Below are positions 17,168 to 57,620 of a stretch of DNA of 64,000 nucleotides, piece after piece. Source of the stretch: Eledone cirrhosa (lineage: Eukaryota). Location: contig OZ024741.1 in NCBI GenBank assembly GCA_964016885.1, positions 18,042,001 to 18,106,000 on the forward strand, read 5' to 3'. Position 1 is the stretch's first letter. The number at the start of each line of letters is the position of its first letter. The position numbers and the translations under genes were made by a program. The notes under the pieces were generated by a model. It searched no databases and was not told the origin of the DNA. It saw only the letters and a list, made by a program, of their open reading frames with translations.

Positions 17168-17552
17168 ATATAAATATTAAAACAATGAAATTAAACACAA
17201 ACCTGTTTATTCATAGTAAAACACATTATTTTACGATCGTTTCTGGGGGGTAGTTCCCTGTATGTTCATTCAATTATTGATCTATGTAAAAGATATTACA
17301 AAATATCAAAGTAAGAAAAAGATACGTACGTCTTCACTACCCGCCGTCTTCAGAAATGATGAGTTTCTGAAGACGGCGGGTAGTGAAGACGTATGTATCT
17401 TTTTCTTACTATTATATTTTGTAATATGTTTTACATAGATCAATAATTGAATGGACATACAGGGAACTACCCCCCAGAAACGATCGTAAAATAATGTGTT
17501 TTACTATGAATAAACAGGTTTGTGTTTAATTTCATTGTTTTAATATTTATAT
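17168..17552. mobile_element. Foldback element (189-bp arms, 7-nt loop) carrying a hammerhead motif; putative Penelope-like pLTR inversion
   Basis: Arms are near-perfect reverse complements around the loop TGATGAG (17357-17363). Confidence 0.85.
17364..17491 (+). ncRNA. Type I hammerhead ribozyme motif with long stem II insertion (mirror copy on minus, 17229-17356)
   Basis: TTT-CTGAAGA-[CGGCGGGTAGT...ACTACCCCCCA]-GAA-ACGATCGT-A-AAA. Palindromic stem III; stem I is weak. Confidence 0.55.
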
Positions 17553-17789
17553 TTTGACTCTGTATCCAATTGAATTATATCGTTGATAAAAATGTTTGTA
17601 TTTTAAACTTTGCTTCACGACTTCTTCTACATACGGATTACATTGAGTTCTTTATGCGGTTTAGACCCTACCATTGAGTGGTAGATTTATCTGTGTATAT
17701 ATATATATATATATATTTGCGGAACAAGTAAATAATAAACAATCTTTTAAATAAATTAAAATACGATTTAAATATTTACCTCTTCTAAT

Positions 17790-17869
17790 GCCATGACCGA
17801 CGGTTTCGCTAATCAAAAGATTGGAAATTCAGAGAATTTCCAATGGAAAACTTTAGCCCTTCAGATAGC
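17790..17869 (-). ncRNA. Type I hammerhead ribozyme motif (A9G core variant, extended stem II)
   Basis: Minus: GCTAT-CTGAAGG-GCTAA...ATTGGAAATTC/GAATTTCCAAT...TTAGC-GAA-ACCGTCGGT-C-ATGGC. Confidence 0.6.
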
Positions 17870-18394
17870 TTTTCCAAACCTACTATATATAAATCCACGT
17901 AGATGTGGATGTGTCGCTTTCTGCCCGCTGAATGAATCAAGCCATTAAAATGACCACCACACAAATGGGCCGTTAGAAAGAGCATGAATAATAGACTCGT
18001 TGATATTTCATGTTACTAGAAATAGCAGCACGATACAACATTTTTTTCTCAACATTATGCAGAATTCAGATAAATGATATAGATATATTCCAGTAGGTAC
18101 TAAGTACCCACGGAAATATATATGGTGTCTATAATAGTGGTTGTTCCATGGTACTACATTATATATATATATATATATATATATATATATATATATATAT
18201 ATATATATATATATATATATATATATATATATATATATATATATATATATATATATTAGAAAGTGAGGTTTTTTTTTACAAAATGAAAAATAACCGAGGT
18301 GTCCTACACGAGTGGAAGTATAAAGAAAAAGGGATGAAATCGAAAATGCAACTGAAGTCTTATTTTTTTTTTAAATATATATATTTATTTGGTT

Positions 18395-18432
18395 CCTTTA
18401 CCGGTTTCGCAGTTCTTCTGCTTTTCAAAAGG
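18395..18432 (-). ncRNA. Minimal type I hammerhead ribozyme, U3-A8 variant (mirror copy)
   Basis: Reverse complement of 18505-18542. Confidence 0.7.
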
Positions 18433-55365: not shown

Positions 55366-56189
55366 TGCGGGAGAGATGACCCCTTAGCCTTTGTCAAGGC
55401 AGAATTCTAGGAGAAGGAAAACTATGATATAACACCTGCAACCCTGATGGTATCCAATGATGTTGACTTGTTCTTCTTTTTGGTAAATATCATCTTGGTT
55501 AAGAGAGTGGGACTGGCTTTGTGCAGTGCCTTTGCTCACTCTAAAAGCTTCATGGCACAGGCATTGCTTTATATCTGGAGATCTCTCTGCACTTGTCGTC
55601 ACATGGTACCATGGGCGCAGCACTATGTGTCAATAATTATCACAAGTGTAGTGTTTGTACCAAAGTTTTCAAGTCGCTGGCTGGACTAAAAAGTCACACT
55701 CGTTCAGCGCATCGGTAGGGGGTTCTCTTACATGGATATAAAGTAGTGGCCGTACTCGGAAACGAGTTGGCAGCCACCATGTATACTAGTGTGTATGTAT
55801 ACAGTGTGTATGTATACTAGTGTGTATGTATACCAGTGTGTATGTATACTAATGTCTATGTATCTATAACTACATATCTATATTTATATTCGTCTGTATG
55901 ACTGTATGTCTGTATGTTAATATCCCCGTATGTGGTAGTAATGGCGACATAGAAGTATAAAAACAGAAATGACTGTATGATAAAACTGAGATTTATATGA
56001 ACTTCAAACAAATTTCTCCAGACCCTTTAACCGGCTGACATTAATTAGAGGAAACTCTTCCTATTTATTAATTCATTAAAGTATGGCTGCCTGCCTTCTC
56101 TTTCGTTTCACCGTGGAATTTCGTATTTCACGAAACTAAACTGTATAGCAGCTAGCTCGGCTGATTGAATAGAGGACTATTGAATTCCA

Positions 56190-56700
56190 TATATATATAT
56201 GTATGTATATATATATATGTATGTATATATATATATATATATATATATATATATATATATATATATATATATATATATATATATATATATATATAAATAT
56301 ATATATATGCATACATTTATATATATATATATATGTATATGCACACAAATGTATATACATATATATATATATATATATATATATATATACACACACAAAT
56401 GTATATACATATATATATATATAATATATATATATATATATATATATATATAGAGAGAGAGAGAGAGAGAGAGAGAGAGAGAGAGAGTGAGAGAGAGAGA
56501 GAGAGAGAGAGAGAGAGAGAGAGAGAGTGAGAGAGAGAGAGAGAGAGAGAGAGAGAGAGAGATGTATGCTATTATGCATGTTTTAATATATGTATACGTA
56601 TACATATATACATACATATATACTCACATACACAGACACCTATATATATATATATATGTGTGTGTGTGTGTGTGTCTGTGTGTGTGTGTGTGTGTGTGTG
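56190..56700. repeat. Compound (TA)n-(GA)n-(TG)n microsatellite
   Basis: Direct reading. Confidence 0.9.
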
Positions 56701-56964
56701 TACATGAAAAGATTCACTCAGAGTTCCATCCGCCATGACATATTACAAAGTACATTTATGTATGTTTTAAATTACGTGAGTATATTTCTCGTGTATTTCA
56801 TATATCCTCATTATCTTTAGCAACGCCTGTCATGAAATGCTATCATACTGTAAATCTACAAAGCAGAGGTGTACTGAAGCTTCCTTTCATTTACCTGTTG
56901 TATAATATACCTAATTATAATGGTTGGTGTAAGAAGTTGTCAAATGTAAACATATTTTTATATA

Positions 56965-57620
56965 TGTATGTATATATAGTATATTTGGCAATATACTGTA
57001 TGTTTAATTAAAAACATTTAGAAGACCATACGCTACCGGTCTTAAAGTAGTGACTATGTTACTTACTTCTTTTCGGCGAAAGAAGGGAGAGAAGCTGACA
57101 GTCTGTTTCACGCAGTTTAGCGATCATCAGAGCCACGCACTCCCTGCTCCCGCCAAAAATTATAGAATCTGGATTCTTATAGAATTCCAGAAGCTGATTA
57201 TACAGAGCGATTGCGGGTCCAGCCAAAATTAGGTATTAGGATTGGTGCTCTGAAATAGCGATGTATACATGAATGTATGTATAGTATATTTGGCAATATT
57301 CCGTATGTTTAATTAAACACATTTAGAAGACTATATGCTATCAGTTTTAAAGTAATCAGCTCCTGATTATTACTGGAATTCTATAAGAATCCAGCTTCTA
57401 TAATTTTCGGCGAAGGCAGAGGAGTACGTGGCTCTGCTGAACGCCAACCAGCTTCCCTCCCTTCTTTCGCCGAAAAGAAGTAAGTAACATAGTCACTACT
57501 TTAAAACCAATAGCGTATGGTCTTCTAAATGTTTTTAATTAAACATACGGTATATTGCCAAATATACTATACATACATTTATATATACATCGTTATTTCA
57601 CAGCACCAATCCTAATACAT
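56965..57620. mobile_element. Diverged foldback with partial tandem copy, carrying a hammerhead motif (Penelope-like pLTR arrangement)
   Basis: 56965-57190 is mirrored by 57373-57580; 57270-57355 is a direct copy of the left arm start. Confidence 0.8.
57093..57134 (-). ncRNA. Minimal type I hammerhead ribozyme, canonical core
   Basis: Minus: GGCT-CTGATGA-TCGC(TAAACT)GCGT-GAA-ACAGACTGT-C-AGCT; GUC site. Confidence 0.72.

Follow-up and report, generated by a model that had tools for sequence, protein, structure and literature searches.

Hammerhead-bearing palindromes in (TA)n tracts of Eledone cirrhosa: probable paired, truncated ends of Penelope-like elements

We analyzed a 64,000-nucleotide stretch of the Eledone cirrhosa genome (GenBank assembly GCA_964016885.1, contig OZ024741.1, forward-strand positions 18,042,001 to 18,106,000; hereinafter the window, numbered from its first nucleotide) that contains five long palindromes (E1 to E5) and one additional element (S), all with hammerhead ribozyme (HHR) motifs. 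Each palindrome probably consists of the paired, 5'-truncated 3' ends of a single Penelope-like element (PLE) family, lying in (TA)n and formed from two complementary DNAs (cDNAs) that were joined at insertion. This reading builds on features that were observed directly, namely, the identity of the arms, the tails, the variable centres, the parental elements or monomer units, and the symmetry of the centre. Two coding families (E1 and E2) and four non-coding families (E3, E4, E5 and S) explain these elements as products of PLE insertion.

Arms, tails and centres of the palindromes

Self-BLAST of the window recovered five inverted repeats with 84-98% identity between the arms, at about the positions given in an earlier reading of this DNA that had been made without database searches (the sequence-only reading). 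As that reading had maintained, the five families are mutually non-homologous within the window, the top match between families being 27 nt long (E 0.009). The ends of the elements had been drawn too short: comparison of the flanks of copies shows that one arm is extended by a tail, specific to its family, ahead of the TA run (to ~17697 in E1, from 18257 in E2, and to ~42386 and ~45140 in E3 and E4, respectively), and that the other arm stops at a fixed point. The tails are 35-150 nt long and, as is the hallmark of PLEs, present on one arm only. Followed from the centre outward, each arm is the pseudo-long terminal repeat (pLTR) of a PLE, with its HHR. Family searches, in each of which the best 40 of 1234-3616 candidates were scored, showed every element to be multi-copy. 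The centres of E1 and E3 vary between copies, and the spacers between head-to-head arms range from 0 to over 1 kb.

Among 123 head-to-head pairs of E1 to E4 (a non-random sample of loci, two of which were counted twice), 89 had one tail, five had two, one had none, and 28 were unclassed; that is, exactly one tail was present in 89 of the 95 classifiable pairs, and the same was found in 51 of 53 window-type E2 copies. The arm that reached farther in the 5' direction was the tailed one in 40 of the one-tail pairs and the tail-less one in 38, with 11 ties. In the 53 window-type E2 copies, where the centre in the window reads CTCACA-GA-TGTGAG, the GA arm bore the tail in 27 and the opposite arm in 24, two copies had no tail, and none had a tail on both arms; a subset of 30 consecutive copies of this type split 17:11, with two tail-less copies.

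Three E2 subfamily sites matched between the arms in every case (38/38, 44/44 and 47/47), so that each palindrome appears to derive from a single source sequence. Both subfamily states were found with the same centre, which, therefore, must have arisen repeatedly. Of 30 consecutive E2 arms that were not of the window type, 14 stop within 5 nt of a common point, and raw reads from two other samples, in which the E1 and E2 families are also present, include loose ends at this 5' hot spot. In 9 of 11 E1 copies, the two arms were more similar to each other than to the best-matching other copy.

Coding parents of E2 and E1

An E2 arm pattern that excludes the window centre has 7278 exact matches, compared to 0 for the control, and these often form head-to-head pairs, 9-1641 nt apart. 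Longer E2 copies contain the end of a GIY-YIG open reading frame (ORF) upstream, and, in 29 of 30 loci chosen by this ORF end, the E2 arm lies 1.0-1.4 kb past the stop and ends with or without the tail. In the parent, a 775-aa ORF is open in all four long copies examined, with an overlapping upstream ORF (ORF1) in three. The predicted protein matches RVT_1 (E 1.3e-6) and GIY-YIG (E 2.9e-6), and has 800 homologues at E<=1e-20. Compared by eye with the motifs in PMC8557442, it shares with Neptune-clade PLEs the reverse transcriptase (RT), a CX4CxxC linker before the C-terminal GIY-YIG domain, an internal CxxC (CCHH) and the overlapping ORF1, a placement by motifs. These motifs suggest Neptune, but do not separate Neptune from Nematis with certainty. 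To judge from these sequences, E2 is a truncated product of an intact coding element with RT and GIY-YIG domains. At two loci (L228 and L231), this family occurs in the head-to-head form with arms of 1.1 and 2.2 kb.

At three loci of the E2 parent (L227, positions 3804-3894, L229 and L230), ORF1 and the RT ORF overlap by about 90 nt, with a TTTTTTA run reminiscent of a -1 slippery site. In a T-then-A tract of the E2 arm (18363-18375 in the window), the boundary moves from T3A10 to T9A4, the sum being 13 in 57 of 70 arms; the tract is unlike between the arms in 24 of 35 copies and alike in the rest, and Illumina reads vary at this position too.

Of 30 consecutive loci matching an E1 pattern, 10 have a GIY-YIG ORF in the sense orientation whose end lies 0.5-0.95 kb upstream of the arm. 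Translations show a CxCX5C linker, no internal cysteine pair or CCHH, and CxxC and CxH near the end; in these endonuclease motifs, as well as in the TA target and the HHR, E1 resembles the Hydra-clade PLEs of PMC8557442, a comparison by motifs. The parent was recovered as its 3' part (the endonuclease end) only, and the RWK and DKT motifs are not tied to E1 itself; E1 is, on the available translations, a truncated product of a coding Hydra-type PLE. With the ORFs upstream of the arms at these 29 of 30 and 10 of 30 loci, the suspected connection of the arms to PLE RT/GIY-YIG ORFs holds up for these two families, as do the minimal type I HHRs with a palindromic stem III and the TA targeting that the sequence-only reading had associated with PLEs. 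A tblastn search of the window with the E2 parent found no PLE coding sequence.

The long stem II of E1 (17390-17440) contains GTATGT...TTTTACATAG, which resembles a 48-nt spliceosomal intron. Locus L161 (940-4350) harbors a separate, near-complete Hydra-type PLE (with RWK, DKT and CxCX5C) that has direct pLTRs and an HHR with a ~85-nt stem II, and is interrupted by stops and frameshifts.

Non-coding families

The units of E3, E4, E5 and S are not palindromes but head-to-tail, circularly permuted monomers. Walking upstream through the loci showed that the E3 tail continues into the unit's own start, and E4 behaves likewise. A period of 305-319 nt was seen in 22 of 30 E5 loci, and one of 453-465 nt in four of 30 S loci. 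In tblastn searches with 45 PLE protein pieces, only flanks were matched in 30 E3 and 30 E4 loci, and the longest stop-to-stop frame among seven E3 units was 170 aa. These four families are likely to be non-autonomous, borrowing a PLE protein. Directly past the tail, E3 and E4 share a 26-nt hairpin (E 0.007) that, we infer, is possibly a protein-binding signal. The earlier suggestion of non-autonomous elements holds for these non-coding families, though not for foldbacks as their mobile units; E1 and E2 are the ends of coding PLEs.

S had been described as a solitary motif (17790-17869). Its HHR, at about these positions, was read by eye and was not picked up by our descriptor; position 9 is G in the window copy and A in 89% of the family arms. 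The motif is not isolated, however, because it lies within a ~440-nt piece (17718-18157) of a 465-nt unit. A PLE ORF adjoining S at loci L148 and L161 was rejected as the parent of S, since it is part of another element that has a pLTR and an HHR of its own. RT sequences near E3 and E4 loci (L061 and L089) were also rejected, as they belong to a neighbouring insertion beyond microsatellites.

Origin of the palindromes

Under the proposed scheme, the RT-GIY-YIG protein would cut both target strands, and two cDNAs would be primed on the opposite strands from RNA of the same family, with one starting from the tail end and the other from the arm end. Each cDNA would stop variably, often at a preferred point just upstream of the HHR that is likely to be the RNA 5' end, AGATGTGAG being the start expected for run-off at this end. 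The cDNA ends would then join via a 1-8 nt overlap. Joining of a tailed and a tail-less cDNA would yield a single tail, head-to-head polarity and a random centre; joining through the short overlap would let either arm extend farther; and a shared stop at the RNA 5' end would produce the recurrent mini-palindrome. In vitro, a Poseidon PLE cuts and extends both strands, with two RNA start sites flanking the tail, and uses uncleaved RNA, with a predicted dimer (PMC11167929). A more specific version, which we propose tentatively and consider to fall a little short of an even chance, is symmetric double integration, whereby cDNAs start at both tail ends on opposite strands, strong-stop-like run-offs join, and the centre flips randomly. 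If correct, it would replace the self-priming account of inverted pLTRs.

Several observations weigh against the joining of two cDNAs or against the PLE framework in which it is cast. Only five of 12 E3 copies had arms more similar to each other than to the best-matching other copy. Most loci were picked by similarity to the window copies, which biases the junction positions of E1 and E3. The two-tail calls all come from E3 (five pairs), and although at least three of these are tandem units continuing, L057 seems to be truly two-tailed. Target-site duplications are unreadable inside TA runs. The RVT_1 score of the E2 parent is 28.7 bits, just below the cut-off of 29.6, the E4 unit length (~1.8 kb) was assembled from several loci, and no protein partner of E3, E4, E5 or S was found in the loci examined. 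Finally, post-insertion inversion between the arms could also yield a 50:50 centre.

This last point matters for the account in which the element is a PLE, but a single cDNA folds back and primes synthesis of the second arm (or this arm is made on an antisense template), with later inversion between the arms randomising the centre. Self-priming on an antisense template is the published account of junction palindromes (PMC3846280), a single-cDNA fold-back explains the perfect subfamily agreement of the arms, and the preferred 5' end of E4 bears a natural hairpin. Nevertheless, we regard this origin as unlikely. Were the arms synthesised in a fixed order, the unpaired centre should go with one of them, but the observed splits were 27:24 and 40:38, and the split was even also among E2 copies 97-100% identical to each other (11:13). 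Because the split is even, self-priming needs the later inversion; yet, mismatches between the arms do not rise with the distance from the centre, no centre-outward homogenisation was seen, and the natural E2 sequence upstream of the centre is not self-complementary. That the short palindrome itself is the mobile unit, MITE-like (miniature inverted-repeat transposable element) or retroposed whole, as the sequence-only reading had suggested for a mobile class of foldbacks, is harder still to uphold and appears improbable. The 363 exact genome copies of the window-type E2 centre and the 96-100% identity of the best 40 E2 matches over the whole length speak for it, but the tail changes sides relative to the same centre, which both subfamilies produce, only 11 of 35 copies have equal T/A tracts in the two arms, the centres of E1 and E3 vary by copy, the units are not palindromic, and the read-through RNA is predicted to be a near-perfect hairpin. 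A MITE or Foldback DNA transposon was, accordingly, rejected given the one-sided tail, the variable centre and spacer, and the continuity of the arms with retroelement 3' ends. We see scarcely any room for the palindromes being fold-back artefacts of assembly or sequencing, or for the HHR motifs being due to chance. No public read or contig piece cleanly bridged a window-specific centre, but repeats were partly skipped, so that this neither supports nor refutes an artefact; the arms differ by 2-16%, the tail is single-sided, hundreds of copies occur in unrelated flanks with reproducible ends, and the HHR counts far exceed those in the controls. The joining of two cDNAs remains the account that we prefer.

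Hammerhead motifs and their predicted folding

A type I HHR descriptor produced eight matches in the window, all within E1 to E5 and all pointing outward from the centre, compared to a mean of 0.05 (maximum 1) in 60 local dinucleotide shuffles. Given that the descriptor was drafted after the motifs had been seen, it was retested on an independent sample of 40 evenly spaced 10-kb stretches (400 kb), where it had 29 matches, while 10 shuffles gave 0-3 and the reversed and complemented controls gave none; motif frequency is, thus, well above that expected by chance. The density of one HHR per 8 kb in the window and one per 14 kb in the sample makes the window only slightly richer. In the sample, HHRs were found in 2 of 20 palindromes (four matches, all outward), so they are enriched in foldbacks, yet most foldbacks lack them; the sample counts also place the majority of the HHRs outside short foldbacks. 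The purported association of HHRs with foldbacks, therefore, stands as an enrichment and not as a general rule, to which the second E2 foldback of the window (1797-1970) is another exception, as its arms were joined 3' of the HHR. At least ten more HHR families are present in the sample; in several of these, stem II measures 79-116 nt and stem I up to 11 bp.

An HHR occurs in each of the five repeats, as previously claimed, but both arms carry a full one only in E1, E2 and E3: the right arm of E4 lacks the CUGAAGA half, and that of E5 lacks the GAAA-stem III half. The motifs have the features of minimal type I HHRs, that is, a CUGANGA or U3-A8 core, GAAA, UH, three helices and a palindromic stem III. 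Stem II is about 57 nt long in S and 103 nt in E1, and the self-duplex of stem III in E4 is predicted to be weak (-2.2 kcal/mol). None of the 66 HHR core columns has common variants, compared to 63 of 1051 other columns, which may be a weak sign of selection on the source elements; mean core variation in E3 and S is no lower than elsewhere, and no compensatory pairs beyond CpG-type changes were detected among family copies. An Rfam scan of the window included no hammerhead family among the best 150 of 581 matches; these were hairpin or microsatellite hits to microRNA models and one CopA, all under the gathering score. MicroRNA genes were rejected.

In folding models of the read-through RNA, forcing the HHR fold costs 165 kcal/mol in E1, 69 in E2, 91 in E3, 37 in E4 and 29 in E5, and only 9 kcal/mol in S. 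With the antisense arm transcribed before the HHR and the cost of folding so high, the palindromes are predicted not to cleave, and the notion of a competition between self-cleavage and hairpin formation appears too even-handed. Most likely, the HHR belongs to the parent RNA and, in the short palindromes, is a passenger buried in the hairpin.

Relationship to known elements

Opposite-strand HHR pairs, inverted truncated copies and tails have already been published, and E1 to E5 and S are further examples. PMC8557442 describes tails, (TA)n targets, inverted partners that are truncated, and non-autonomous elements that form pLTRs, and considers it still open how PLEs create inverted ends. Our palindromes resemble the inverted 5'-truncated PLEs of Craig et al. 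2021 (PMC8557442) and Arkhipova et al. 2013 (PMC3846280) in the head-to-head arrangement, the tail at one end, the (TA)n target and the pLTR HHR, but in our case often only the pLTR is left of both partners, so that the palindromes measure 170-660 nt, the tails are 35-150 nt long instead of 30-40 nt, and the symmetry of the centre was counted. Cervera and De la Pena 2014 (PMC4209133) reported minimal HHRs in pLTRs, including the U3-A8 core, with low cleavage that depends on dimers, and interpreted dual motifs on opposite strands, separated by 100-700 bp, as truncated PLEs. Compared by sequence alone, our motifs share the short stem I, the unpaired base starting stem II, the palindromic stem III and the U3-A8 core, but some of the stems II (S and E1) are far longer.

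Tandem HHR monomers have been viewed as PLE dependants (PMC7229834; bioRxiv 10.64898/2026.07.22.740005). E5 and S share with these metazoan non-LTR (long terminal repeat) retrozymes a short, non-coding monomer that is arranged head to tail and has a single type I HHR. They differ in that their HHRs are, by eye, of the minimal PLE type, and in that copies mostly span 1-2 units and are often accompanied by PLE tails and a partner in inverted orientation. The non-coding units of E3 and E4 are longer and form pLTRs, in the manner of non-autonomous Chlamys elements such as MRC1. In the literature that we searched, with few of the subscription journals and without Repbase reports, a number of older PLE papers and supplements, we found no count of centre orientation against tail side and no proposal of joined twin cDNAs.

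As a class of elements, the palindromes are ordinary: they are PLE debris of a known sort, which repeat-finding programs would probably label as MITEs. Their value is mechanistic, in that twin priming and the fold-back of a single cDNA can be told apart by the even split of centre orientation among many young copies. The genome also appears to contain an intact candidate PLE enzyme, and symmetric double integration could be readily tested with the intact young Neptune-type element and the non-coding units of 315 nt to 2 kb that presumably hitch-hike on it. The host genome is 3.0 Gb in size, with abundant TA microsatellites; extrapolation from the 400 kb sample gives roughly 200,000 HHR motifs and 150,000 long palindromes genome-wide, the latter possibly a large source of double-stranded RNA.

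Features of the window

Table 1. Coordinates of the hammerhead-bearing elements and their parts in the window
Feature	Position	Strand	Remarks
E1, head-to-head 3' ends of coding PLE (Hydra-type endonuclease motifs)	17168..17697		tail-less arm left, tailed arm right
E1 inverted repeat	17168-17552		arms 96% identical (self-BLAST)
E1 left HHR	17228..17357	-	CUGAAGA, long stem II, stem III ACGAUCGU; predicted cut after 17232
E1 right HHR	17363..17492	+	descriptor match; predicted cut after 17488
E1 tail (~145 nt)	17553..17697	+	single arm only; flank comparison of copies
S, nearly full copy of ~465-nt non-coding circularly permuted unit	17718..18157	-	flanked by two (TA)n runs
E2, head-to-head pLTRs of young coding PLE (Neptune-type motifs)	18257..18618		tailed arm left, tail-less arm right
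E2 inverted repeat	18319-18618		arms 98% identical (self-BLAST)
E2 tail (62 nt)	18257..18318	-	flank comparison of copies
E2 left HHR	18395..18432	-	U3-A8 core variant, stem III ACCGGU
E2 right HHR	18505..18542	+	U3-A8 core variant
Second E2 foldback	1797..1970		no HHR; tail on left arm
E3, head-to-head ends of ~1.95-kb non-coding circularly permuted unit	41836..42386		tail 42250-42386 on right arm
E3 inverted repeat	41836-42249		arms 95% identical (self-BLAST)
E3 left HHR	41889..41946	-	stem III AUGAUCAU
E3 right HHR	42139..42196	+	stem III carries one change
E4, decayed head-to-head ends of ~1.8-kb non-coding unit	44657..45140		right arm internally deleted, tail 45026-45140
E4 inverted repeat	arms 44657-44750/44932-45025		87% identical (self-BLAST)
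E4 left HHR	44712..44773	-	sole complete one in E4
E5, head-to-head insertion of ~315-nt tandem monomer	56959..57618		left about 1.2 units; right with broken HHR and short tail
E5 inverted repeat	arms about 56959-57190/57373-57587		84% identical (self-BLAST)
E5 left HHR	57093..57134	-	sole complete one in E5

E1, S and E2 (17168-18618) are three unrelated PLE-type insertions that lie end to end in a single TA array. Three other inverted repeats in the window (9797-10225, 19740-19976 and 20991-21072) have no HHR match. On the minus strand, there are four Tx1/L1-like copies (4568-9493, 24003-29271, 29755-34705 and 35715-41063), 69-70% identical, with frames for ORF1, endonuclease and RT; three of these are consecutive, which may reflect a target-site preference. 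The window also includes a 63-nt minisatellite array (10242-13044), a long GT-rich tandem array (about 46000-55500) and a tandem array of a ~50-nt self-complementary unit (63118-63998).

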